From NCBI GenBank assembly GCA_963749155.1, contig CAVVLO010000003.1, forward strand, positions 128,001 to 192,000: a stretch of 64,000 nt of DNA, written 5' to 3'. Under the pieces are notes generated by a model that made no database searches, was not told the origin of the DNA, and was given only the letters and a program-made list of their open reading frames with translations. Origin of the DNA: an uncultured Armatimonadia bacterium (GTDB taxonomy: Bacteria > Armatimonadota > Zipacnadia > CAVVLO01). Shown one piece after another: positions 9,019-25,401 of this stretch; within the stretch, counting starts at the first letter, position 1; each line of letters opens with the position of its first letter. The translations under genes were made by a program, and so were the position numbers.

Positions 9019-9801
9019 ATGAGCAGCGTTCTGAGGCTGCCAAAGCCGCTTTCCAAACGCGCTTTACCTGGGGGAGAACTAGTGGAGCCTGACGACCAGA
9101 CCGAGCAAGACCTTATCGAAGCTGAAGGCCTCTCGCGCCAGTCTACGGAGTCTCAGGCCTTCCTCAAACAGCTTGACGAGAAGACCCGCTTCACTCTCTA
9201 CGAGCTTATGGCGGTCCAGTTTGGCGGCGGGTGCGTGGGGGCAATCCTGGCTTTGGTCGTCATCGGCACTGATACGCTTGCCTGGCTGGTGCGTTACCTC
9301 CACGGCAAGCCTGAGCCTCTCTTCCTGGTCGGCTGGGATACGATTATCTTCGCCCTACCACTCTTCATCGTCGGACTGTGGTTCGGTGGCTGGCTTGGGA
9401 AGCGCCTTGCAGAGCGTTTCAGCGGGAAGGTAAACAGCCAGTGGATGGGTATGCAACAGGCCTGGCAGCGGGAGGCAGAGCGCAAAGGCGGCTTCCGCGG
9501 CTGGACTGCGGTGAATATCGTGAGCCTCATCGTGCTTTTCTTCGCGCTCAACAGCTTCGTCGCGGTGGATGATTCGGGGATAAGCTACGCCAGGTTCGGC
9601 AAGCTGAAGCCTGTCACCTATACCTGGCAGGACGTTTCTTCGGTCTGGGAAGGCGAACTAACTGGCGGTATCAGAGCCTTCCGGGTGGAGTTCTCCGATG
9701 GCCAGGTCTGGCGCTCGAACGAGCTTGTCTCGATGCGCCACTGGGAGCAAGCCCGGGACGCCTTTGATTTCGTCGTCGCAAGAACGAAGCCGGCGCCCTA
9801 A
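9019..9801 (+). CDS. Hypothetical membrane protein (about 3 TM segments)
   Basis: Long ORF with hydrophobic segments filling the gap; start uncertain (9004 or 9019 or later). Confidence 0.6.
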   Translation: MSSVLRLPKPLSKRALPGGELVEPDDQTEQDLIEAEGLSRQSTESQAFLKQLDEKTRFTLYELMAVQFGGGCVGAILALVVIGTDTLAWLVRYLHGKPEPLFLVGWDTIIFALPLFIVGLWFGGWLGKRLAERFSGKVNSQWMGMQQAWQREAERKGGFRGWTAVNIVSLIVLFFALNSFVAVDDSGISYARFGKLKPVTYTWQDVSSVWEGELTGGIRAFRVEFSDGQVWRSNELVSMRHWEQARDAFDFVVARTKPAP

Positions 9802-10914
9802 TACCTCCCATACTTCTCCACCAGCTCGCTGACCAGGCGGACGCGCTCCATATCGCCGTCTGGGGGCACCTGATCGCAGGTGCCGATCAGCACTTTGCCC
9901 TCCTCCATCAGCTCTTCGAGTATCTCCCTGACGCAGCGCTCGACTGTCTGAGCGGGATAGAGAGGGCTGAAGAGCGCCCCAGGCACGCCAGTCCAGAGCA
10001 GCACCTCGGGCCCGGCAAGCTCCCTCATCTGGCGAGGGGTCAGATCGCCGACCGGCGCGGGGGTCAGCGATTGCGCGCACTGGATGCCCGAGGCCGCGAC
10101 TTGCTCCAGCACGCCGCGCATCGTCCCATCGATATGCACAAGCGTATGCTTGCCCGCCTTCCGCACCTGCGCTGAGCGCTTGATATGGTAGGGCAGGTAG
10201 TAATCACGAAACACTTTTGGCCCGACGACCTCGGCCGAGATGTTCTCCCCGAAGCACACGAGCGGCGCTGGCGAGTCGCACACGATGGGATAGAGTCGCT
10301 CGTCCCGCTCGTCCAGCGCATCCAGTGTGCGGTGGACCTCTTCGCGGTCGTCCAGCAGCGCGTAGACGGTATTGGTGACGCCCATCCAGATGACCAGCAG
10401 GTCCGCCATCGGCATCCGCGGGGGGATGGTCCCAGGGATACCCTCCCCGCCCCACTTTTCAATCTGCAGCAGCTGGTGAGAGTAGTCGGCCTCAAACTGG
10501 GTGTGATGACAGAGAAACTGCAGCGTCCTGAGGTCGGCGCTGGTCTTGCAGGGGTATTCGAGATAGGCCCAGGTGTAGCCAAGTGGTTCAAACTGCTGCA
10601 CCTGATGGAGGCTGCCGACGGGGGTCGTCCACTCGACGTGAATCAACCGCTTGCCCTCGCGCTCCTCCTCCCAGCTCTTTACGGCAATCTCGTCGGTGTC
10701 ATAGGTCTGGCGCCAGGGGTTGGCGAGCACCTGTTCCATCCCGCCGATGCCATAATCGCGGTAGAGGTCGACGACTCCCCAGCCCTCATACCGCTCGGGG
10801 AGCTTGCCCGGCCTGCTGCATCGCGCTATACCAGTAGGAGAGATCACCCGCCCACGGCACAACATCGGGCCGCCGCCCCTCGAATACTGCAATGATGCGC
10901 TCAAGGTGGGTCAA
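9798..10914 (-). CDS. Uroporphyrinogen decarboxylase (URO-D)/MtaA-CmuA family protein, frameshift near 10808
   Basis: Corrected N-terminus from TTG at 10914 is MTHLERIIAVFEGRRPDVVPW, with AAGGAGG RBS; HIDG and CDQVPPD motifs; close paralog of 12474-13590. Confidence 0.85.
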
Positions 10915-10929: not shown

Positions 10930-11616
10930 TTAGGTAGTGCGCGAAACCTCGCTGTGCCAGCGGTCTGCAAGCAGGAGTGCCAAAGCCGCAGCCCCTATCA
11001 CTCCGAAGCCAGCGGTAAGATATTTGGGAGACACGGCGAAAGCCAGTATGCCCCCCGCAAGGACTGGGATGCCATATTTGACAAACTGCAGCGCCACCTG
11101 GCCTGGCAAGGGTGCTTTTTCAGCAGACTGCTCGGACCAGCTCTTGAACATAAGAGAGAAGACGACAATATATGCTAACATTGCAAGCAGCAGCCAGTTG
11201 CCCGGGCTCAGTCCCCAGTGCCACAGCACCCACCACCCCACTGCCCACACGCTAACACCGAGGGCTACGTACCTCGCAAGGCTTAGGAGATTGCGCTTCT
11301 CGGCTGTAGTCTTGCAAATATAACGGAGGCACAGCCAGTGCCCACTAAAAACAAGCAGCACGCCAAGCGCGAACGTCGCAACCCTCCACTGCATCCCGAG
11401 TGGCTGCTCAGGGGCAACCGCCCAGGCACAAAAGAAAAAGCCAGCATAATCCAGCAACTGTGTTACCGGATATAGAGGGTTCACAGACCTAACATAGGGA
11501 TTGACCTGGTGCTCCGGATGAATCTCCGGCCACGGTGTCCCGCAGGCAGGACAGACGTCCAGCTTGCCTGAGTAAACGGTATAGCAGTTGGAGCAGATTC
11601 GCTTGCGACCTGTCAC
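10930..11616 (-). CDS. Hypothetical multi-pass membrane protein with N-terminal zinc ribbon
   Basis: CSNC...CPAC followed by about 6 hydrophobic helices; AGGAGG RBS before GTG. Confidence 0.7.
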   Translation of the reverse strand: MTGRKRICSNCYTVYSGKLDVCPACGTPWPEIHPEHQVNPYVRSVNPLYPVTQLLDYAGFFFCAWAVAPEQPLGMQWRVATFALGVLLVFSGHWLCLRYICKTTAEKRNLLSLARYVALGVSVWAVGWWVLWHWGLSPGNWLLLAMLAYIVVFSLMFKSWSEQSAEKAPLPGQVALQFVKYGIPVLAGGILAFAVSPKYLTAGFGVIGAAALALLLADRWHSEVSRTT

Positions 11617-11712: not shown

Positions 11713-11828
11713 CGCTCTGTTGCGGTCTAGCTACCTCCTCCCTAACCCCCACCCTCCCGGGGGTGCAAGCAGCGTGCCAGAACCTGGCCAGGAAGGCGCT
11801 CCAGACAAAAGATTTTCGAAAGGTTTAC
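11713..11828 (-). repeat. Dispersed sigma54-promoter/G-tract element, copy 1
   Basis: Aligns with copy 2 (18381-18497) over ~115 bp; core TGGCACGCTGCTTGCACCCCCGGGAGGGTGGGGGTTAGGGA. Confidence 0.9.
11764..11779 (-). promoter_or_regulatory. sigma54 -24/-12 promoter facing gene 10930-11616
   Basis: TGGCACGCTGCTTGCA matches TGGCACG-N4-TTGCW with GG-N10-GC spacing. Confidence 0.75.
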
Positions 11829-11850
11829 ACGGTGGAAACCCGCTTCACCT

Positions 11851-12451
11851 CTAACCCGGGGTTTCGCGCTCCTCGGATCTTGCCCCAGTCAGCAGCTCCC
11901 CACTAGTGAAGGCCAACTGGCTGCCCACCACTGCTGGCACGAGCCAAGGCTGAGCGAGCGCGAGGATGACCACGGGCAGCGCCACGGCTCCGTAACAGCA
12001 GGAAGTAGTGAAGTGCGCCTCCCCACTCGGTTCCGGACGCATACCTCGGGCAACGCAAGACCGTCAGGGCGAACCAGGCCAGGTAACTGTAAAACGCTAT
12101 CATCAACCAGAGTGAGTAACTGAGCCGCGCCACGTAAAGTAGCAGGCCCCCAGCCACCGCAAGCGCCAGTATCCAGAGATAGGCAACCGCCGCGCGGCGC
12201 AACTCGCCTGGGTCCGCCCGGTCCCGCAGCCCGAACGCAGCAGCGCAGAGGCCGGCAAGCAGGAGGAACACAAAGGTCACGGCGAGAGAGGCTAGTTCCA
12301 GCGGGAGACTTAGCTCCGCGTGAAGAATAACGGCCACGAGCAACCCCGCCAGTCCCACCACCAGCAGCAGCACTTCCAGTGCATAGGCAAGCCCTCGCAC
12401 TAGCCACCGGTGCTCGCTTTCGGACTGCTCCCCAGACTCAGGCTCTGCCAC
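11851..12451 (-). CDS. Hypothetical multi-pass membrane protein, frameshift near 12000-12040
   Basis: ORF 11903-12451 is hydrophobic; the hydrophobic tail continues in ORF 11851-12042; GGAGG RBS. Confidence 0.6.
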
Positions 12452-12473
12452 GGCAGATCGACCTCCGCTCCCC

Positions 12474-13590
12474 TCAGTACCTCCCGTGCTCTTCGACCAG
12501 CTTCGTAATCAGCTCGCACTTGTGCGGCTGACCGTCGGGAGGCATCTGGTCGCACACTCCAATTATCAGTTTAGCACCTTCCATCAGGTGTTCGAGACAT
12601 TCCATCACGATTTTTTCAACCGCGGAGTCCGGATAAAGATTGCTGAAGTAGGCGCCAGGCACGCCCGTCCACAGGATTACATCCGGCCCGGCCATTGCGC
12701 GCATCTCGCTTGGGGCGACATCTCCCACCGGGTAAGGTGTCAGCGACTGGGCGCACTCGATGCCTCCCAGATGGAAAAGCTCCAGCACGCCGCGCATCGT
12801 CCCATCAATATGCACGAACCCATGCTTGCCCGGCCTCGTGGATCTGCTTGCCGCGCTTTTGGTGGAAGGGGATGTAAAACTCCTTGTACAGCTTCGGACT
12901 CACGACCTCGGAGGTGATGTTCTCCCCGAAGTAGACCATCGGCGCCGGGGAGCCGCAGACGATTGGGTAGATCTTCTCGTCCAGCTCGTCCAGCGCTTCG
13001 ACCGTCCGCCAGACCTCGTCCGGATCGTCCGCGAGGGCATAAGTAGTGTTCATAACGCCCATCCAGATGACTATCAGATTGGCCAGGGGGATGCGCGGCG
13101 GGATGCTGCTCGCGATGCCCTGCTCTCCCCACAGCTCGATCTGGCGCTCCTGATGGATATAGTTCGGTTTCACCTGGGTATGCCGGGCGAGAAACTGCAA
13201 AGTCCGCAGGTCGGCTGCATCTTTGACAGGATAATCAAGGTAAGCCCAGGTGTAGCCCATCGGCTCATACTGCTGCACCTGATGCAGAGTGCCGACAGGG
13301 GTGATCCACTCGGTGTGAGCGATCTGCCGGTCGCCCTTCTGCTCCTGCCAGCCCTTCACCTGGATCTCGTCGGTGTCATACCACTGCTCCCAGGGCTGGG
13401 CCAGCACATGCTCGTGCGCTCCGACGCCGAGGTCTTTGTAAAGCTGCACGACGCCCTCGCCCATATATTTCTCGGGCATCTGGCCGGACTGCGCCATCGC
13501 GTTATACCAGTAAGTCAGATCGCCAAACCAGGGCACCACATCAGGCGTGCGCCCCTCGAAAACGGCGGTTATGCGTTCTTTGGGTGTCAT
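12474..13590 (-). CDS. URO-D/MtaA-CmuA family protein, frameshift near 12820
   Basis: MTPKERITAVFEGRTPDVVPW; ORFs 12805-13635 and 12474-12815 join at HIDGTMRG; CDQMPPD. Confidence 0.85.
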
Positions 13591-13603
13591 TTTGAGCTCC
13601 TTC

Positions 13604-14623
13604 CTAGTCAGCGCGCCAGGCGCGTCCAGCGGCAATCATCGCTTCGAGATTGGCAATAGGGGTCTCGGCTGGCAGGTCGCAGCCCGTGCTAAGTACAAAA
13701 TTGGGATAAGGCGCCATCTTGGCGAGGAGAGCCTCTGTCTCCGCCGTCACAGCCTCGGGCCTGCCGCGCAGTATCGTCCCCGTCGGTGACAGATTGCCAA
13801 CGATAAGCACACCCTCTCCGGCCTGGTCGGCTGCCTCGGCCAAATCCAGTCCAGTCTCGGGAGAATCAAGGCTCAGCGCGTCCGCGCCTGTGGCCACCAT
13901 AGATTTGATGAGGTGAGTGGTGTTGCCGCAGATATGCAGCACCGCCGCCGCCTCGCGAGAATGCACCAGGTCTGTCAGCCTGGCGCACCACTTGCCTGAA
14001 AAGCCTTCGAACTGGCGCGGCCCCAGCATTACAGCGCTCGGTTCGAGCAGGCAGATGACCTCAGCGCCCGCCTCGAGCAGCGCCTGGGCGAAGAGGGCCA
14101 GCTTGCTCGTAGCCAGCTCGCACAGTTCCTCCATCCGCTCAGGCTCTTCCAGCGTCAGCAAGGCGGCTTCCTCAGCGCCAACCAGCAAGCCAACAAGCGA
14201 GAAGGGGCCGATCATATACGCCCCGCAGAGGACAGACTTGGGCAGCAGTCCACTCATCCGCCTGACCGCTTCCAGGTACGCCATCACGCGGCCATCCTGC
14301 AGCAGCTCAACGCCGGCGATGCGCTCAAGTTCACCCGGCTTCAAGGCAGAATGGCGCACTGCGCCGACATCATCAACAGGATAAACTGTAAGCTTGCCCA
14401 GCGCATTGGCCTCCAGCGTCAGGTCCATCAGCGGGAAGAGGAGATCAATATCCAGCCTCTCCACAAGCGCCCGCAGCACTTTCTCATGCTCGACAGCGTT
14501 TTGCTGCGCCAGTTTCATCGTCGTATCTACAAGTTGAAGGCCAGGAGCCCCGGCCAGCGGCACGATGAGTCTGCGCCCCTCAGCTAGTGCTTGCTCCTGC
14601 GCCTTTGGCAAGGCCTTGCTCAT
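13604..14623 (-). CDS. URO-D/MtaA-CmuA family methyltransferase-like protein
   Basis: DLTLEANALG, GPFSL, LHICGNT, GNLSP, FVLSTGCDLP (HxC...C metal ligands typical of MtaA/CmuA). Confidence 0.9.
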   Translation of the reverse strand: MSKALPKAQEQALAEGRRLIVPLAGAPGLQLVDTTMKLAQQNAVEHEKVLRALVERLDIDLLFPLMDLTLEANALGKLTVYPVDDVGAVRHSALKPGELERIAGVELLQDGRVMAYLEAVRRMSGLLPKSVLCGAYMIGPFSLVGLLVGAEEAALLTLEEPERMEELCELATSKLALFAQALLEAGAEVICLLEPSAVMLGPRQFEGFSGKWCARLTDLVHSREAAAVLHICGNTTHLIKSMVATGADALSLDSPETGLDLAEAADQAGEGVLIVGNLSPTGTILRGRPEAVTAETEALLAKMAPYPNFVLSTGCDLPAETPIANLEAMIAAGRAWRAD

Positions 14624-14635
14624 CTGAAAAGCTCC

Positions 14636-16114
14636 TTATAACTCTGCAACTTGCAGAAAGGTCTTGTACGCCTCATCAAAGGCCCCGGTATCTTCAGGTG
14701 TATACGTTTCCAGGCCAAAGGAATCCCGGATGACTTCGCGAGCCTCACTGAGGCCGGCCAACTCGCCCGTCGCGATGGCCTGCATCAGGATATTTCCGAG
14801 TGCCGTCGCCTCGTAAGGCCCGACGATGACCGGCACGCCGCAGGCATTGGCCGTGAACTGCGAGAGCAGCCTGTTCTGCCCACCGCCACCGACGATATGG
14901 ATAGTGTCCAGCTTGCCGCCGCGTATCTCCTGCAGCTTCTCGAAGGTCCACTTGTACTTCAGAGCGAGACTCTCGAGCGCCACGCGCACCAGTTCGCCCT
15001 TGCTGGTCGGCACCTGCTGGCCGCTTTCCTGGCAGAACTGCGCGATACGGGCCGGCATATCGCCAGGCTTCAGGAAAAGCTCGGCGTCCGGATCAATGAC
15101 CGCGAGGAAAGGCTTCGCCTCGGAGGCCATCCGGGTAATGGTGACATAGTCCAGCACCTCGCCCTCGCGCTCCCAGGTGCGGCGACACTCCTGGATCAGC
15201 CACAGGCCCATAACATTTTTGAGGAAACGGAAGGTCCCGTCCACACCGCCCTCGTTGGTGAAGTTGTACTTCAGCGCTGCCTCGGTCACCAGCGGCTCCT
15301 TCACCTCAAGGCCTGGCAGCGACCAGGTGCCGCTGCTGATGTAAGCATGGTTGGTGCCCCGCGCAGGCACTGCGGCTACGGCCGAGCCCGTGTCATGCGT
15401 CGCAGGCGCGATAACGGGCACAGCGCCCAGGTTGGTCTGCTCCTGCATCGAGGGATGCAGCGGCCCAAGCAGCGTGCCGGGCGGGACGATCTCGCCCAGG
15501 AACCCGCTCGGGATGCCCAGCTTGTCGAGCAGCTCCGTCGCCCAGCGCCCCTCGCGCGGGTTGTAGAACTGCGTCGTCGTCGCGTCCGAGAACTCATTGG
15601 CCTTTACGCCCGTCAGCCAGAAGTTGAAAAGGTCGGGTATCATCAGAAGTCGCTTGGCATTGTCCAATAAGGAGCTCTGCTGCTTCACCATCGCAGCAAG
15701 CTGGAACAGCGTATTGAGCTGCATAAACTGGATGCCCGTCTGGTTGAAGATCTCCTCGCGCGGAACGAGGTCAAACACATAGTCCAGCATCCCGTCGGTG
15801 CGCGCATCGCGATAGTGCCAGGGGTTCGAGAGCAGCACATCGTCCTTGTCCAGCAGGCCGAAGTCCACCCCCCAGGTGTCGATACCTATGCCTTTCAGCT
15901 CTTCGACCTCGGCGGCGGCCATCCGGAGGCCGTTGCGTATCTCGCCGAAGAAGCCAAGCACGTCCCAGTGCATTCCGGTGGGCAGTATGGTACCGCCGGT
16001 TGGGAACCTGTGGATCTCGCGCAGCGAGACCTTGCCTCCGGTGAGTTCGCCGATTACCGCGCGACCACTTTCAGCACCGAAATCAAAAGCCAGATAGGTA
16101 GCGGATTTCGCCAT
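14636..16114 (-). CDS. rhaB: Rhamnulokinase (FGGY carbohydrate kinase)
   Basis: YLAFDFGAESGR, IGIDTWGVDFGL, HDTGSAV, ISSGTWSL, FTNEGG, FLKNVMGLW, EATALGN. Confidence 0.9.
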   Translation of the reverse strand: MAKSATYLAFDFGAESGRAVIGELTGGKVSLREIHRFPTGGTILPTGMHWDVLGFFGEIRNGLRMAAAEVEELKGIGIDTWGVDFGLLDKDDVLLSNPWHYRDARTDGMLDYVFDLVPREEIFNQTGIQFMQLNTLFQLAAMVKQQSSLLDNAKRLLMIPDLFNFWLTGVKANEFSDATTTQFYNPREGRWATELLDKLGIPSGFLGEIVPPGTLLGPLHPSMQEQTNLGAVPVIAPATHDTGSAVAAVPARGTNHAYISSGTWSLPGLEVKEPLVTEAALKYNFTNEGGVDGTFRFLKNVMGLWLIQECRRTWEREGEVLDYVTITRMASEAKPFLAVIDPDAELFLKPGDMPARIAQFCQESGQQVPTSKGELVRVALESLALKYKWTFEKLQEIRGGKLDTIHIVGGGGQNRLLSQFTANACGVPVIVGPYEATALGNILMQAIATGELAGLSEAREVIRDSFGLETYTPEDTGAFDEAYKTFLQVAEL

Positions 16115-16370
16115 CCAGATCACCTCAACGAGACCTTGATAGGGCGGCGCAAAGCCCTCTTGGGAAGAGGCTTGCGTCGGGGCTAGCAACCCTTTCGGGC
16201 CGCAGGATACCTGCCTGGAAGCCACTTGGCAATAGAAAAAGGACAAGCGCCTGCGATGCATACAAAAGTTCTGTCAAAGTGACGCGCTTCCTCCTAGTCC
16301 AGGGCAGGAACCGCCTTCCCTTCAGCGAACCTGCGGCAAGTCAGAAATTAGCAGTCAGGAGGCGCGTCCA

Positions 16371-17384
16371 ATGCGCAACGCCACAATCGTTTTTCCCGCC
16401 AAGGGAGAAGTCATACTTGAAGATCGTCCCATACCCGCCGTCGCAGAAGGCATGCTGCTTGTAAGGACCTTGAAGACCCTAATCAGCACGGGCACCGAGA
16501 GCATCTGTTTTCTATCGAAGTTTACTCCTGACACCCACTGGGCCAACTGGGTGAAATATCCCTTCCAGCCTGGCTATTCTCAAGTGGGCATCGTTGAAGA
16601 AATCGGCGCCGGTGTGACTGGCTTTGAGGTTGGCGAGCTTGTCGCGACCGAGACCCAGCATCAGGCCTGGGCCAATATCTGGCCGCCCTCGGCTATCAAG
16701 GTGCCTGAGGGAGTAACGCCGACTGACGCGACCTGGCATTCACTGGGACGCATCGCACAGGTGGGCGTAAGGAAAGCCGACCACGAGTTAGGCGATGCCG
16801 TGGTGATTATCGGGCTTGGGCTGCTTGGCCAGCTTGTCACCCAGTATGTGCGACTGATGGGCGCGCGGCAGGTCATCGCGATAGACACTTCGGATTTCCG
16901 CCTCGAGCTTGCCAAAGAGCATGGCGCCACCCACTGCCTGCTGATGCCTGTGCAGGACGCGAAAGACACCGTATTGGAACTCACCGGTGGCCGCGGCGTG
17001 GATGTGGCCTACGACATCACGGGCGCCTGGCAAGTGCTGCCCCACGCGCTGCCCCTGGTCTGCAGGCATGGCAAGGTGCTGATACTCGGAGACACGGGCC
17101 ATCCAGAGAAACAAGTGCTGACTGGTGATGTCGTCTGTCGCGGCGTGAGCATCATCGGCGCTCATGCTGTGCTGCCCAGTTTCGAAGTTACAGACAAGGA
17201 ATACTGGAGCCGCGGCAACATCGAGAGCCTCTTCCTGGAGTATATCCGACGCGGCGATATGGTTGTCGAAGACCTGGTTACGCATATCTTCTCGCCTGCC
17301 GACTGCGCGGAAGCCTATGGCGCGCTCGAAGAGCAACGCGAGACGATGATGGGCGTTGTTTTCGACTGGGAAGCTGACCTCTAA
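16371..17384 (+). CDS. Zinc-binding/MDR family dehydrogenase
   Basis: ISTGTE, PGYSQVG, GLGLLG Rossmann motif; AGGAGG RBS. Confidence 0.9.
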   Translation: MRNATIVFPAKGEVILEDRPIPAVAEGMLLVRTLKTLISTGTESICFLSKFTPDTHWANWVKYPFQPGYSQVGIVEEIGAGVTGFEVGELVATETQHQAWANIWPPSAIKVPEGVTPTDATWHSLGRIAQVGVRKADHELGDAVVIIGLGLLGQLVTQYVRLMGARQVIAIDTSDFRLELAKEHGATHCLLMPVQDAKDTVLELTGGRGVDVAYDITGAWQVLPHALPLVCRHGKVLILGDTGHPEKQVLTGDVVCRGVSIIGAHAVLPSFEVTDKEYWSRGNIESLFLEYIRRGDMVVEDLVTHIFSPADCAEAYGALEEQRETMMGVVFDWEADL

Positions 17385-18253
17385 TCAGCTTTTGGTTTTA
17401 GTCGCGCGTCAAGCCATTCGACAATTACCTCAGTTGGGGTGGGCATGCCAGGCGTAGTGAGCTGGCCATGACCTGCCCCTTCATAGGTTACGAGTTTGGC
17501 TTCAACTTTGGCGGCTTCGAGCCTCGCAAGCAAATCAACTGACTGCTGGTAAGGCACCAACTTGTCCGCGGTGCCGTGCAGAATCAGCACGGGCGGGTCG
17601 GCTTCATCTACCCATAATATCGGAGAGGCTTGTGTGAGGCCTTGCATGACTTGCTCCTCAGGGGTGCCTGCGGGGAAGAAACCGAGTATCTCGGGCCTTT
17701 GGGCAATAGAGCGCAAGTCGGTCGGGCCAAAGAGGGAGACCACTGCTTTGATGCCCAGATTGCTGGCCTTCCAGACCTGCGAGTCCCCGGTATCGGCCAT
17801 ATCGGACAGGCCTGTCATAAGCGCCAGATGCCCTCCGGCGGAGCTTCCCATCACAGCCAGGCGATCGGGATCGAGTTTGGCGCGAGTCGGAAGCTGGGCG
17901 CGCGCGAACTTCACTGCCTGGAGGCAATCGTAGAGGTTCGCGGGCCAGATCATATTGGGCGTCAGGCGATACTGGATGCTTATAACAACGTAGCCGGACT
18001 GCTTCAGTTGGGCCCAGGCGCAGGGGCTTTTATCGCCGTTGCGCCAGCCGCCCCCGTGGATGAAGAGGACTCCTGGGAAGGGCCCCTCTCCCTCGGGGAT
18101 ATAAACATCGAGCCTCAAGGGAGGCTCGGTATAGTCGGCGAATACTAGATCCGACAGGTCGGGCTGGATCGGGGCAGGCCTGGCAATTTGTGCCTGAAGA
18201 GCCAGGGCTGAGCAAGCCAGCAAGAGTAAAACAAGCGGTAGGATTTTTTGCAT
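17381..18253 (-). CDS. Secreted alpha/beta hydrolase (BD-FAE/HSL-type esterase)
   Basis: Signal peptide MQKILPLVLLL; HGGGW, GSSAGG, HGTADKLV, GAGHG. Confidence 0.9.
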   Translation of the reverse strand: MQKILPLVLLLLACSALALQAQIARPAPIQPDLSDLVFADYTEPPLRLDVYIPEGEGPFPGVLFIHGGGWRNGDKSPCAWAQLKQSGYVVISIQYRLTPNMIWPANLYDCLQAVKFARAQLPTRAKLDPDRLAVMGSSAGGHLALMTGLSDMADTGDSQVWKASNLGIKAVVSLFGPTDLRSIAQRPEILGFFPAGTPEEQVMQGLTQASPILWVDEADPPVLILHGTADKLVPYQQSVDLLARLEAAKVEAKLVTYEGAGHGQLTTPGMPTPTEVIVEWLDARLKPKAD

Positions 18254-18380
18254 TGGTAAAGCACCCCCCTTGGGGAGATAGACGCCCAGAAGTGGCGAGC
18301 TGTTCACCTGGACTGTTAAGAGATTTGGGAGTGATACTCTGGCAACACTTCAGAGCAACGGTGTCACAAGCCTGCAACCG

Positions 18381-18497
18381 CGCTCTGTTGCACTTCTAGT
18401 TTCACCATCCCTAACCCCCACCCTCCCGGGGGTGCAAGAAGCGTGCCAGAAGCGGGGCAAAAGGAGAGCCAGGATGAAAGGTTTACGGAAGGTTTAC
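18381..18497 (-). repeat. Dispersed sigma54-promoter/G-tract element, copy 2
   Basis: TGGCACGCTTCTTGCACCCCCGGGAGGGTGGGGGTTAGGGATGGTGAAACTAG on the minus strand. Confidence 0.9.
18433..18448 (-). promoter_or_regulatory. sigma54 -24/-12 promoter facing the esterase gene
   Basis: TGGCACGCTTCTTGCA, consensus match. Confidence 0.75.
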
Positions 18498-18560
18498 GTT
18501 TTAGATACGCAAAAGGCCAACGCCAACGGGGACCAGTCTGTAGAGAGTTGCAGCCTTCGA

Positions 18561-19913
18561 GTGCTTCCTCTCCCCTCGATTTGGGCTTTGACGCTTGCGT
18601 GCCTGGTAACAGTGATTTCCCTTCCTCCTTCGCCTTCCCCGCCTCGGAGCGGCCTTTTGCCCCTTGTCTTGCGGATTTTCTGGCAACTGTCTACGCCCCG
18701 CCAGACCAGTTCGACGCGGACCTCGGCAATGGGATGATCCGGCTCTGGCTTTCGAGTGCGACTGGAGCACCGTCGAGCCGCAGCGGGGCGAGTGGCATTT
18801 CGAGGCGATGGACAAAGTGGTTCTCGCCCTGCACGAGCGCGGTATGCAGGTCGTGCCCCTGCTTGCTTACACCGCCGGATGGGCCTCCAGCGCGCCCGAT
18901 GGCAACGGCAACGCTCCCCCGCGCGAGGTTGCAGACTGGGAGAACTACGTCGAGAAGATGGTCGCTCGTTATTCACGCCCGCCCTTCAACGTGAAGTACT
19001 TCCAGCTCTGGAACGAGCCCAAGTGGAGTGTCGATACTGGCTTCTGGACTGGCACAGGCCCCGAGTGGGTGGATATGATTTTCATCCCAGGGGCACGTAT
19101 CATCCGCAAATATGGCTGCAAGACCGTCTTCGGCGGTTGGCCTTGCAACCAGCCGCAGGACCTCGACACCGCTCTCGAATACAACGACTGCTGGCGCTGG
19201 GTGGATATTATCGACGTCCACTATTTCCCCGTCGACATCTTTCAGGATATGTGGGACAAATACCTCTCTACTGGGCGTTGCGAGGGGCTTTGGCAGACCG
19301 AGATCGGCTGGCTTACTTTCCCGAACTACCTGCCCAACTGCTATCTGCGCGCGCTCTACTGGGCGCTTGGACACGGCTGGGAGGAGGGTTCGGACAGGTA
19401 CAAGCTGTTCTGGTTCGCTTGCTGGGGAGCTGGACCGGATGGGCCAGCCAGCCTTACTCAACCAGGGGAAGGCGGCAATGTCCTCTCCCAGCATGGGCTG
19501 CGGCAGAAGGTTCTGAACGAAGTGCTCGGGGGCGAGCAGCTTGCCAGGTATGACGATTACACTACCAGCCTCAATCTGCAAGCCGAACTTACCGAGGAGA
19601 AACCCACCGGACTCGGCTTCCAGGTAGGAGAAGCGCGTCGAGTGGTGGCGCTGCTCCTCACGCCCGACTTGCTGAAAGCTAACGCCTCAGTGGTCGTTAC
19701 TCTGGGAAGTCTCTCCAGACAGCCTGCCTAGCGTACGCCTTCTGGATGTACTGGGGAATCCCCTGACGGTTGACTCCTCCTGGGCTGATGGGAAGCTGAC
19801 CTGCACCTTCCCAACCGACCAACTGAAAGCCCGAGACTGCCCGAAACTATGGCGTGGACTTCCCCATCGCGCCGGCTTATCTGGTGGTGGATTGCGCCAA
19901 TCCTGAGCCCTGA
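18561..19913 (+). CDS. Clan GH-A glycoside hydrolase (GH5/GH39-like), frameshifts at both ends; boundaries approximate
   Basis: DWSTVEPQRGEWHF, FQLWNEP (acid/base), LWQTEIG (nucleophile); coding continues past 19731 in shifted frames to ...FPIAPAYLVVDCANPEP*. Confidence 0.75.
19859..19893 (+). repeat. 35-bp direct repeat, copy 1 (partner 20147-20181)
   Basis: CTTCCCCATCGCGCCGGCTTATCT is identical for 24 bp; 3 mismatches over 35 bp. Confidence 0.9.
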
Positions 19914-19974
19914 GACTGGACTCTCAAACAAATCTTGGCCAGTTTTCCGCAGGTTAAGCGCCTATTTCACCTTG

Positions 19975-20029
19975 CTGGCACGCTTCTTGCTTACCCCGGG
20001 TGGGTGGGGGCTAGGGATGGTGTAACTAG
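19975..20029 (+). repeat. Dispersed sigma54-promoter/G-tract element, copy 3 (promoter 19976-19991)
   Basis: CTGGCACGCTTCTTGCTTACCCCGGGTGGGTGGGGGCTAGGGATGGTGTAACTAG; inverted relative to copy 2. Confidence 0.9.
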
Positions 20030-20146: not shown

Positions 20147-20181
20147 CTTCCCCATCGCGCCGGCTTATCTACTGGTGGAAT
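20147..20181 (+). repeat. 35-bp direct repeat, copy 2
   Basis: See 19859-19893; reads FPIAPAYLLVE in the equivalent frame. Confidence 0.9.
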
Positions 20182-20408: not shown

Positions 20409-22718
20409 CTAGATAGCCCGCAACACCAACAGCTGACCTGGTTCGGTATCAAACTCCAGATAGCCAAGCTCGTTCTGTTCTACACGTACCGGTTCATCTG
20501 CGAGATAAGCCTCGCACGCGACATCGGGCGCCATTATCAAGCACTTCCCCCCCTTGCGAGAGAGGATACTCGCTTCGACAAATTCGTCATTGCGCCAGGT
20601 GATATCGACGACGAAGCCGCCCCGCGCGCAAAGTCCCGTCACCTTGCCTTCGGACCAGGCCTCGGGCAGTGCCGGCAGCAGATGGATAAAGCCCCGCTGG
20701 CTTTGCAGCAGCATCTCGGCCATCGCCGCTGTCGCTCCAAAGTTGCCATCTATCTGGAAGATATGCGGCGGGTGCAAATCCAGCAGGCTGGGCGTCGTGA
20801 ACTGCCGCAGCAGCTCCTGGATATGTTCGAAAGCCAGGTTCCCTTCGAGGAAACGAGCCCACAAAGCGGCAGTCCAGGCGCGACTCCAGCCCGTATGCCC
20901 CCCGCCCGCTGCAAGTCTGAGCTCCAGCGAGACGCGCGCCGCTGTAAACAACTCCGGTAGCCTCTCAGGGGTCATCAGCTCGCCGGGGAATACACCGACC
21001 AGATGGGAATAATGCCGATGACCTGGCTCTACTTCCTCGAAATCTTCCAGCCACTCCTGAAGCTGGCCCTTCCGGCCAATGTGGAAGTCAGCCAGGTGTT
21101 CGAGCGCATATAGCCAGTCCGGACGCAGTGGATCATCCAGTCCAAGCAACTGGCTTGCCGCAAGGCAGCGCTCGAAAGTCTCGCGTACAAAGACCAGGTC
21201 CATTGTCGAAGCGACACCGATACTGACAGGTTCCGCCCCCCCTCTGAACCGGTTCTCGGGCGATTGACTCGGCACGGTAACCAGTTTCCCGTCCTCGGCT
21301 TGCACCAGGTAGTCCAGGTAGAACTCTGCCACCAGTTTGTAGAAGGGATAAGCCTGCTCGCGAAGGAATTCCTCCTCTCCCGAAAACTCCCACCGCTGCC
21401 AGAAGTGCTGCGCGAGCCAGGCCGCAGCGCCTGTCCAGATGTCCCAACCAGGCGACTCAGGGGTGCACCGGGCCCAGACATCATCGGTGATTGGGAAGCA
21501 CACTCCCTTGCACCCGTAGAGCTTATTGGCGGCATCCTTGGCATAGGGCACGGCGCGCCAGACGAATTCGAACAGCGGTGCGGTGCATTCAGGCAGGTTG
21601 CAGATCTCGGCCAGCCAGTAGTTCATCTCGAGGTTTACATCCTGATGGAAGTCCGCATCCCAGGGAGGCGCAAGTTCGGCATTCCAGAGGCCCTGCAGGT
21701 TGGCGGGCTGGTCCGAGTTGCGGCTCGAGGCCATCAGCAGGTAGCGCCCGTAATTAAAGTAGAGCGCCGGTAGTGAGGGATCGTCTTCGCCAGTCCTGAC
21801 TCGCGCCAGGCGTTCCTCAAGGGGCAGAGATTCAAGTTCCTCATCGCCCGGTAAATCCAGGCTGACGCGTGTGAAAAGCGTCTTGTGCTCTCTGGTATGA
21901 GCTTCCAGCACCTCATCGAAGTCGCGCGACAGCAGGTCGAGTCTTTCGGTGCAGCATGAGACAGGATCAGGACACTCGTAGTTGGTGGCCATCGTCAGGG
22001 CAATCCAGGCGGATTTTGCCTCTCCGACAAGCACTTCCCTCTCGTGGCCCGAGGTGTAACCTCCCTCGACGAACAAACGCGCTTCCGCTGCGAAGGCGAT
22101 GCCTTCTTCGAACAAGCCCTCAAGCCCCAGGGAATGCGGGCTGGCCCAGGTGGTCAGCTTGCAGTCGGGATCCAGTGTCCGAGTAAGCTCCGCGGTAAAG
22201 GCCAGAGCGCCTTCGGTATCCGCTTCAAGCTGCACCGACTAGCACGTTGTCAACCGCCGAAGCGAAGACTCGCCTGGTGTAGCCAACTCCCCCCGCCTCA
22301 TAGCTGACCTCAACAACGCCCTTCTTCCAGATACAAGACTCGCGAATAATCACGCGGTTCAGGCTGGTCAAGCAGGTGGAGCACCAATTCACCCAGCGGG
22401 TTGATAGGGCTCTACCCTCCGGTCGTGCCCTGACAGGTGTTCAGTCGCAAGCGCCGCGCCTTCGAGCCATTCTCCAGCAAGGAGTTTCTCTCTGATTGCT
22501 GGCAGGTGGCCTCGCACCATCGGGCAGCTTCGGTCATTGGTACGCCCGCGCCAAAGATTCTCGTGGTTGAGCCAAAGTCGTTCTTCCGGCACGCCTCCTG
22601 CCACCATCGCACCTAACTGGCCATTGCCGACGGGCAAGGCTTCAAGCCACTCTTCGGCTGGCGAAGCTAGCCAAAGCTCGGTTAATATCCTCTCGGCGTC
22701 TTCCATATGCGCCGTCAC
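20409..22718 (-). CDS. GH95 alpha-1,2-L-fucosidase, frameshifts at ~22235-22400
   Basis: WLEALPVGNGQLGAM, FNYGRYLLMASSR, PANLQGLWN, VNLEMNYW, GQLQEW, HRHYSHL, FQIDGNFG. Confidence 0.9.
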
Positions 22719-25325: not shown

Positions 25326-25401
25326 TCCTTGGTAGCTCAATCGGCAGAGCGGATGGCTGTTAACCATTAGGTTGTAGGTTCGAGTCCTACCCAAGGAGCC
25401 A
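25326..25401 (+). tRNA. tRNA-Asn (GTT)
   Basis: 76 nt; acceptor TCCTTGG/CCAAGGA, anticodon loop CTGTTAA, GGTTCGAGTCC T-arm, discriminator G, encoded CCA. Confidence 0.97.

Follow-up and report, generated by a model that had tools for sequence, protein, structure and literature searches.

Three intergenic repeats in a 64,000-nt stretch of DNA from an uncultured Armatimonadia bacterium (C3:128001-192000; this whole stretch is called the window here) belong to a family of 17 predicted promoter cassettes. A cassette is about 130–150 bp long, and together they would define one regulon. The layout has three parts: a tandem pair of 11-nt units, a sigma-54-type promoter, and a G-rich module close to the predicted transcription start. 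The genome measures 4.17 Mb in 7 contigs and has a G+C content of about 60%. We propose, tentatively and with a little less than even confidence, that the start-site module would be a hairpin/quadruplex element acting on the displaced non-template strand and in the nascent hybrid, where it would keep the start open and boost output.

The window repeats had been noticed in a sequence-only reading, which described a sigma-54 promoter followed by four conserved G runs. That observation is real, but it captures only some of the unit and a minority of the family. The promoter, TGGCACGCT(G/T)CTTGC, is matched exactly at 11765-11779(-), 18434-18448(-), and 19976-19990(+), and the G motif, GGG(A/T)GGGTGGGGG(T/C)TAGGG, at 11740-11758(-), 18409-18427(-), and 19998-20016(+). 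All three copies carry the ACCCC run 5′ of the G motif and CTAG 10–13 nt 3′ of it, and the differences within the motif are confined to the loops. In comparison with shuffled sequence, the promoter pattern at ≤2 mismatches gave 5 matches (shuffle mean 1.01; 5 reached in 1/100 shuffles) and the 19-mer gave 3 (mean 0.10 in dinucleotide-preserving shuffles; 3 reached in 0/100). Copies 1 and 2 also have in common the upstream pair of 11-nt units, which the sequence-only reading did not contain.

A whole-genome scan with the 19-mer, allowing ≤3 substitutions, identified the 17 family copies on contigs C1, C2, C3, and C6. With a relaxed promoter pattern, a sigma-54-type promoter lies 5′ of every copy and in the same orientation (17/17). 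The strict form TGGCA[CT]-N5-TTGC is found in 12/17 copies, and four have TTGT at −12. In one copy, C1_95290, the promoter and the fourth G tract are both degenerate. The 17-copy alignment revealed a third conserved block, GTAAAnnnTTnGTAAAnCTTTCGC, which is made of two head-to-tail 11-nt units of the form GTAAAnCTTTn. This block is located 24–25 nt 5′ of TGGCAC in 14/17 copies. The two units occur together, spaced by 11 nt, in 13/17 copies; the rate of the unit in the genome is 0.69 per kb per strand. A weakly conserved stretch 3′ of the G motif, AAGTGTTTCG, is an inverted copy of the same unit. In 6/17 copies this inverted unit lies between +30 and +51, on the opposite strand; another two carry the unit in direct orientation, at +39 or +51.

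The sequence between the blocks varies among subfamilies, but the block spacings are constant, which argues for selection on function rather than recent copying. Three recent duplicate pairs are present in the family, on C2, C6, and C1. Of the “portable sigma-54 promoter cassette” in the earlier reading, the cassette is supported and extended, with 17 copies, a fixed three-part layout, and an rpoN gene in the genome. Portability as a transposable unit is unsupported because flanking direct repeats were found at 1/17 copies only (copy 3) and at none of the other 16.

The module consists of C4–5 followed by G3(4)-W-G3-W-G5-NNN-G3-A-Y-G2–5. Within the family it is always on the non-template strand and always adjacent to the promoter (17/17). 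The canonical quadruplex motif (four or more runs of G3+) is present in 16/17 copies, with loops of 1, 1, and 3 nt and often a fifth tract. The preferential conservation of the G runs, seen at first in three copies, extends to the larger set. Among the 17 copies, only C1_95290 deviates in any of the 14 tract columns, and all loop columns vary: T predominates in loop 1 (15 copies, with A in 2), loop 2 is divided between A (9 copies) and T (8), and loop 3 occurs in five forms. Of the mismatches to the query 19-mer, 28/29 sit in loop positions. A metagenome contig that is ~96% identical to the window and covers copy 2 provides a close natural variant. In this contig, the module changes only in loop 1 (A>T, 18424) and in the ATG that follows it (ATG>ACG, 18407). 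Three other changes in the element all fall in spacers, and the G tracts, the C run, and the −24/−12 elements are untouched.

Quadruplex motifs are scarce in most bacterial genomes, and RNA quadruplexes are depleted in bacteria. This genome has 36 short-loop quadruplex motifs (loops ≤3 nt) compared to 61, 69, and 63 in shuffled genomes, and the family supplies 16 of the 36. Separately, homopolymeric G runs of 15–18 nt were noted at C2:250798, C2:1301728, C2:304830, C3:598319, and C3:514436; such runs could be slippage-prone.

Two folds of the module were modeled with ViennaRNA. A hairpin between the C run and the third G tract has energies of −10.6 to −19.8 kcal/mol, and the quadruplex model gives a three-tetrad fold of −22.8 to −33.8 kcal/mol in 16 copies. 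The two folds are mutually exclusive. In this genome the pairing of the hairpin continues into the flanking sequence, where both sides have changed (AAC/GUU, AAG/UUU, AAU/AUU, AAA/UUU). Among the 14 distinct sequences, a copy pairs with its own flanks at a mean of 7.29 positions versus 5.98 with the flanks of other copies. A closing stem between the C run and the fifth G tract is unsupported (own versus others' flanks, 5.5 vs 5.6 and 4.58 vs 4.57). The suggestion of a structural switch in the sequence-only reading fits the sequence, in that a C-run:G-tract hairpin is predicted to compete with a three-tetrad quadruplex. No known RNA family accounts for the motif in the searches made: Rfam 15 at gathering thresholds returned only tRNA in the window, and 9 loci searched with E-values of up to 1 had nothing matching the motif. 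In the search for a C-rich partner, the best match to 6C RNA was below the cut-off (30.8 bits vs 47) and elsewhere in the genome, and a scan for C5-W-C3 gave 66 sites and was uninformative.

The position of the module relative to the promoter divides the family into two classes. The G motif starts 13–15 nt past the 16-nt promoter in 14 copies and 5–6 nt past it in the three window copies. The earlier placement of the motif at about −5 to +15, which follows from sigma-54 geometry, suits the three window copies, but in the other 14 the motif lies 8–10 nt further downstream. In the majority class the predicted start falls near the C run, which would place the entire module in the transcript. These 14 motifs are past the predicted start and outside the melting region, where the switch had been placed. 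The window class differs: its C run and one or two leading tracts would lie upstream of the predicted start, in the region to be melted.

We also searched for the cassette and its parts outside this genome. The whole cassette was not found in 40 genomes of the same class, a 401-genome sample of the phylum, or metagenome scans. The exact 17-mer was present in 0/40 class genomes. In the phylum sample, this genome had 13 copies and 8 others had one each, and a reversed-pattern control gave 5 single matches. The composite sigma-54 and G-motif pattern had 0 matches in the metagenome scan; the upstream-unit and sigma-54 pattern had 46, none of them cassette-like.

The G module alone (CCCGGGWGGGWGGGGGNTNGGGA) is found in at least 122 stretches of a species-representative genome collection. 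What follows here applies to the matches listed. None has a sigma-54 promoter 5′ of the module. Most are from Actinomycetota (Gaiellaceae, Thermoleophilia, Glycomyces), and many copies are in two AT-rich metagenome-assembled genomes (MAGs) labelled Holosporales. In these MAGs (L020-L023, L042, L044, L077-L079, L097, L116, L120, L125), the module belongs to a repeated element that is flanked by an inverted repeat, GTTAACGTATTATTAA / TTAATAATACGTTAA, and a −10-like GAGAAT immediately precedes the module. Read from the sequences, the genes downstream are housekeeping genes (tmk, pyrG, relA/spoT-like). At 23 loci the module is at the end of a hydantoinase-A-like open reading frame (ORF), just before the next gene, and the match there may be partly driven by coding (PPGWVGARDG). 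At the other 99 loci, TAnnnT occurs within 25 nt upstream in 48/99 versus 6/99 for a control window, with the hexamer 0–1 or 5–8 nt from the C run. Past the fourth tract, A-(T/C)-G-G is nearly always kept, although it is beyond the search pattern. The genes downstream, again read from the sequences, include those for prephenate dehydrogenase, a HemD-like protein, P5C dehydrogenase, ribosomal protein L19, a class-V aminotransferase, and endonuclease V. In Glycomyces (L008, L019, L034-L036, L054, L057, L068, L070, and others), the module comes after a repeated TTCGGGTGACA...TTGTCGnAC...TAnnnT unit, which we take to resemble the actinobacterial RecA-NDp/PafBC-type promoter. Judging by these upstream sequences, the same G module appears to stand beside three different promoter types.

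The presence of rpoN, on which the promoter assignment depends, was confirmed. The gene encodes 468 amino acids at C1:910320-911726 (L001:556-1962), and the Pfam scores are 32.7 bits for Sigma54_AID, 128.8 for CBD, and 107.2 for DBD. It sits mid-way in a 982-kb contig, beside an HDOD protein and a REC-histidine-kinase hybrid. The protein has a Cys4 insert (CPLCG...CQACG) directly past region I that is absent in six class relatives. In comparisons with the ESM Atlas, this RpoN is nearest to Chloroflexota clusters and PurH was uninformative as to lineage; DUF1559/N_methyl proteins would suggest a PVC-type genome.

An AAA+ enhancer-binding protein was not found in the genome by six-frame PF00158, GAFTGA-loop, and PF14532 searches. 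Two six-frame PF00158 matches (37.8 and 32.8 bits) were rejected as activators, both being read from sequence as Clp ATPases. The genome search for GAFTGA-type loops yielded none in an AAA+ context, and the best PF14532 match (19.6 bits) was below the cut-off. Among 40 genomes of the same class, rpoN and a strong PF00158 match coincide: 33 genomes have both and 7 have neither. In these relatives, rpoN and the PF00158 gene are often 3–40 kb apart on one contig. The assembly consists of 7 contigs with 100% marker completeness and 5.87% contamination, and a single gene could be missing from it. The missing activator touches on the textbook rule that sigma-54 never works without an AAA+ activator. 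The sequence-only reading did not foresee the absent enhancer-binding protein, nor the G motif beside promoters other than sigma-54 elsewhere.

Sigma-54 sites are not confined to the cassettes. There are 45 strict sites genome-wide compared to about 16 expected from composition, and the number of consensus sigma-54 promoters is put at about 30. We inspected 17 seemingly intergenic sites without the G motif for downstream ORFs and ran a chosen subset of these ORFs through Pfam. Behind them are the REC-kinase hybrid, an OmpR-type regulator, a polysaccharide export protein, an amidase, AdoHcy hydrolase, PurH, RuvC/RuvA, and TyrS, among others. One site precedes a FlgC-type flagellar rod protein (Pfam), and the ORF before it, which has no Pfam family, was read as FlgB. 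The OmpR-type gene (C1:931831-932550; L213:152-871) has a promoter at C1:931780 that carries the block GCAAAACTTTTCAACTTTTTTCGC at the same 25-nt spacing and no G motif. Because its own promoter carries the block at this spacing, the OmpR-type regulator is a candidate reader of the tandem 11-nt units.

In the mechanism that we tentatively favor, the tandem 11-bp units GTAAAnCTTTn would be a head-to-tail site for a dedicated regulator and would supply regulation, and sigma-54 RNA polymerase would give promoter specificity. On strand separation the module would fold, either by pairing of the C run with the third G tract or by formation of a three-tetrad quadruplex from four tracts. The functional unit would be the folded structure on the displaced non-template DNA together with the first 25–30 nt of the transcript. 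A non-template quadruplex and a very stable rG:dC hybrid behind the polymerase would keep the start region open, which would allow more output per activation event. The same sequence would give the mRNA a stable 5′ structure. The main reason for favoring a role that includes the DNA strand is that in the window copies the C run and the first tracts are conserved although they are predicted to be untranscribed. A precedent exists: a non-template quadruplex motif past the start raises T7 RNA output via R-loop/quadruplex formation (PMC7341879).

Several points weigh against this explanation. The precedent is for T7 polymerase in vitro and not for bacterial RNA polymerase or sigma-54. The start sites are predictions from promoter geometry, and the quadruplex energies are values of the ViennaRNA model. 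Independent events number only about 9–10 in the loops versus 1 in the G/C-run positions, because the copies are related by descent. Part of the signal of invariant G tracts is ascertainment: the family search tolerated no more than 3 substitutions, and the G tracts were fixed in the cross-phylum pattern, so that the cross-phylum set is uninformative on tract versus loop conservation. Outside this genome no covariation was seen for helices beyond the C4:G4 pairs (6.67 vs 6.58). A protein could also read the G-rich direct repeats. Finally, the location of the whole motif past the predicted start in 14/17 copies would suit a purely RNA-level role equally well.

Such a role is the main rival reading, though a doubtful one. 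The module would then be the 5′ end of the mRNA and act post-transcriptionally, with G5/GGAGG as a strong ribosome-binding site before a leader AUG and a fold that gates ribosomes or blocks decay. Besides the placement just mentioned, an ATG ends the motif in 14/17 copies, always exactly 6 nt past the G5 run, and opens ORFs of 2–26 codons. The 16S tail carries the usual CCUCC. Among the matches listed from other genomes, the motif ATG at Gaiellales-type loci is in frame with gene starts (HemD-like MGPA..RVIVTR), most starts being ≤60 nt away, and the 23 hydantoinase-A-like loci have no nearby promoter. However, the ATG is missing in 3/17 copies of the family, and it is ACG in the close natural variant and in about a sixth of the listed cross-phylum loci. 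The leader peptides are not conserved across copies, and their K/E-V-F-R stretch is better explained as the inverted copy of the upstream DNA unit. The main genes begin 50–250 nt past the module, which is thus not their ribosome-binding site. The C run and first tract are conserved, moreover, where the predicted starts leave them untranscribed, both in the window copies and in loci where the module abuts a −10 element.

A protein operator is unlikely. Here a DNA-binding protein, acting as repressor or co-activator, would bind the C run and the GGGW repeats and sit over the start. The difference in spacing between window and other copies, 8–10 bp, is near one helical turn and would keep the same face, and the motif is strictly promoter-adjacent. 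Against this, the motif is asymmetric and has one orientation relative to the promoter in 17/17 copies. Its variable positions are single bases between G runs and include A/T swaps, which is unusual for base-specific contacts, and the phyla with the motif would all need to share the protein. The particular version raised in the sequence-only reading, an operator of the CsoR/RcnR type, did not survive, although the genome has two genes of this family. The motif has no AT-rich inverted flanks, the genes downstream are for carbohydrate enzymes, and there is no rationale for a metal repressor over 17 such promoters. The two CsoR/RcnR-family genes have their own palindromes just upstream, compact, AT-flanked, and unlike the motif: TATCCCCCCTGGGGGGATA at L229:1780-1800 (-) and ATACCCTTAGGGGTAT at L230:1310-1330 (+).

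Spread of the cassette by transposition as a MITE-like mobile promoter, with the G-rich stretch as passenger or end sequence, is very improbable: the family is multi-copy with recent duplicate pairs, inverted copies of the upstream unit are found at +30 to +51 in 6/17 copies, a 33-nt direct repeat brackets copy 3, and in the two AT-rich MAGs the motif lies inside a multi-copy element with a long flanking inverted repeat, but the other 16 copies have no such direct repeats, conserved spacing without conserved inter-block sequence is a sign of functional selection, and purifying selection on the G and C runs speaks against a passenger.

The proposal of a start-opening module has a more far-reaching variant, which we consider quite unlikely. 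In this variant, the genome would run a large sigma-54 regulon without an AAA+ activator, comprising the consensus promoters with the flagellar rod genes, the housekeeping genes, and the 17 cassettes. The module would pre-open the bubble, and the OmpR-type winged-helix regulator would act on the tandem units. Recurrence of the module at sigma-70-type promoters (Actinomycetota) and in AT-rich endosymbiont-like MAGs would mark a general portable opening and output-boosting element across bacteria. Danson et al. (PMC7057263) state that sigma-54 forms able to bypass the activator start transcription only from bubbles that are already open, and such a bubble is what the module would supply. The combination of sigma-54 without an activator and the G module is therefore worth testing.

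In copy 1 of the window, the tandem units GTAAACCTTTC and GAAAATCTTTT are at 11807-11828(-), at −70/−59 relative to the G motif. The block is a putative regulator site 25 nt 5′ of the −24 element (TGGCAC) and has 3 mismatches. The promoter TGGCACGCTGCTTGCA at 11764-11779(-) is an exact match, and it is followed by the C5 run (11759-11763) and the G motif GGGAGGGTGGGGGTTAGGG (11740-11758), both on the minus strand. After the G motif this copy has AGG, where other copies read ATG. The first downstream ORF (10933-11616, -) encodes 228 amino acids with a Cys-rich N-terminus and no Pfam family, and the next is a URO-D-like ORF (9801-10904, -).

Copy 2 has units GTAAACCTTCC and GTAAACCTTTC at 18476-18497(-), with 2 mismatches and a spacing of 25, the promoter TGGCACGCTTCTTGCA at 18433-18448(-), and a C5 run with the G motif GGGAGGGTGGGGGTTAGGG at 18409-18432(-). 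A leader ORF of 14 codons, MVKLEVQQSAVAGL (18364-18408, -), starts at the ATG of the motif, 6 nt past the G5 run. The gene downstream (17384-18307, -) encodes a BD-FAE / alpha-beta-hydrolase esterase of 308 amino acids (Pfam BD-FAE, 162.5 bits).

In copy 3 the upstream units are degenerate. The promoter TGGCACGCTTCTTGC is at 19976-19990(+), the C4 run with the G motif GGGTGGGTGGGGGCTAGGG at 19994-20016(+), and ATGGTGTAA, a 2-codon ORF, directly after the G motif at 20017-20025(+). The 33-nt direct repeat around this copy (19859-19891 and 20147-20179; 94% identical, spacing 288) suggests local duplication or insertion of that copy. Copy 3 has no co-directional gene and is aimed at the 3′ end of a convergent GH95 gene (20412-22235, -). 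No intrinsic terminator was called on the plus strand after it, and a discrete small RNA is therefore unsupported. Elsewhere in the window, a tRNA-Asn (GTT) at 25326-25401 is the sole Rfam or ARAGORN match.

The genes co-directional with the cassettes are mostly those of secreted carbohydrate-active enzymes (Pfam). Besides the window esterase, they encode an alpha/beta hydrolase, a pectate-lyase-like protein with an F5/8-C domain, an alpha-L-fucosidase, a GH3 enzyme with PA14, ThuA together with a GFO/IDH/MocA oxidoreductase, and several proteins that have a signal peptide but no assigned family. Behind copy C3_541189, the GH3 gene occupies two overlapping frames (L136:1744-3957 and L136:3821-4399), with GH3_C divided between them, which suggests a frameshift or sequencing error. 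A class A RNase P RNA (309.8 bits, C3:42053-42452, outside the window) lies ~300 nt 5′ of copy C3_42756. Two C1 copies resemble copy 3 in having no co-directional gene, which makes at least three such copies in the family, and the three face convergent 3′ ends across 275–415 nt; the genes faced are GH95, a GH76-containing gene, and Laminin_G_3. Copies C1_416911 and C1_394707, which both face convergent genes, share the stretch ATTGGCTTRACAGCGCCSTTT ~100 nt past the motif, and they may make a related non-coding transcript. A homologous non-coding RNA common to the two was rejected, since the similarity tapers off ~105 nt past the motif.

If the proposed role is right, a strictly conserved, orientation-fixed start-site quadruplex of a whole regulon would be among the clearest natural tests of a functional bacterial G-quadruplex, because the genome is quadruplex-poor (36 motifs versus about 64 expected). 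The reappearance of the module beside other promoter types in unrelated phyla strengthens the case for a functional quadruplex. If the assembly is complete, the question of whether sigma-54 promoters can fire by another route becomes directly testable on defined DNA templates. In practical terms, the cassette would be a promoter-leader unit, both compact and modular, for an uncultured lineage that degrades polysaccharides.

A described bacterial module of this multi-copy, regulon-tied kind was not found in the open-access literature, and searches there for the motif string, or for sigma-54 together with quadruplex, gave nothing relevant. G-loops are reportedly known in E. coli, and a G4 is said to lie in the nasT promoter of Paracoccus.

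Compared with known systems, the module has partial counterparts of several kinds. Operators of CsoR/RcnR proteins have G/C tracts flanked by AT-rich inverted repeats; the cassette resembles them in that a C tract abuts a G tract near the promoter, and differs in having neither dyad symmetry nor AT-rich inverted flanks. Like 5′ hairpins of the ompA type, the module is short, structured, G-rich, and at the 5′ end of unrelated mRNAs, with a stretch resembling a ribosome-binding site after it. Unlike such portable 5′ leaders, it is partly upstream of the predicted start, is tied to a promoter and a regulator site, and can dispense with the ATG.

As a promoter, the cassette looks like standard sigma-54, but the enhancer-binding protein that such promoters require was not found in its genome. 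It shares with sigma-54 promoters that have upstream activator sites, such as glnAp2, nifH, and pspA (Francke et al. 2011, PMC3162934; Danson et al. 2019, PMC7057263), an exact TGGCAC-N5-TTGC(A), an rpoN gene, and an upstream site. The regulon, with secreted enzymes of the cell exterior and, at other sites, flagellar rod genes, also fits the themes reported for sigma-54. The upstream site is a head-to-tail 11-bp pair 24–25 bp from −24 rather than an inverted repeat at −80 to −150, and the cassette has in addition a conserved quadruplex-capable module past the −12 element. This module resembles the promoter-proximal non-template G4 of Lee et al. 2020 (PMC7341879), being a G3+ motif with 1–3-nt loops that is located at or after the start and is orientation-specific. 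Unlike known promoter G4 elements, it is multi-copy and conserved in sequence, belongs to one regulon, is paired with a C run whose predicted hairpin would compete with the quadruplex, and is found with three promoter types in distant phyla.

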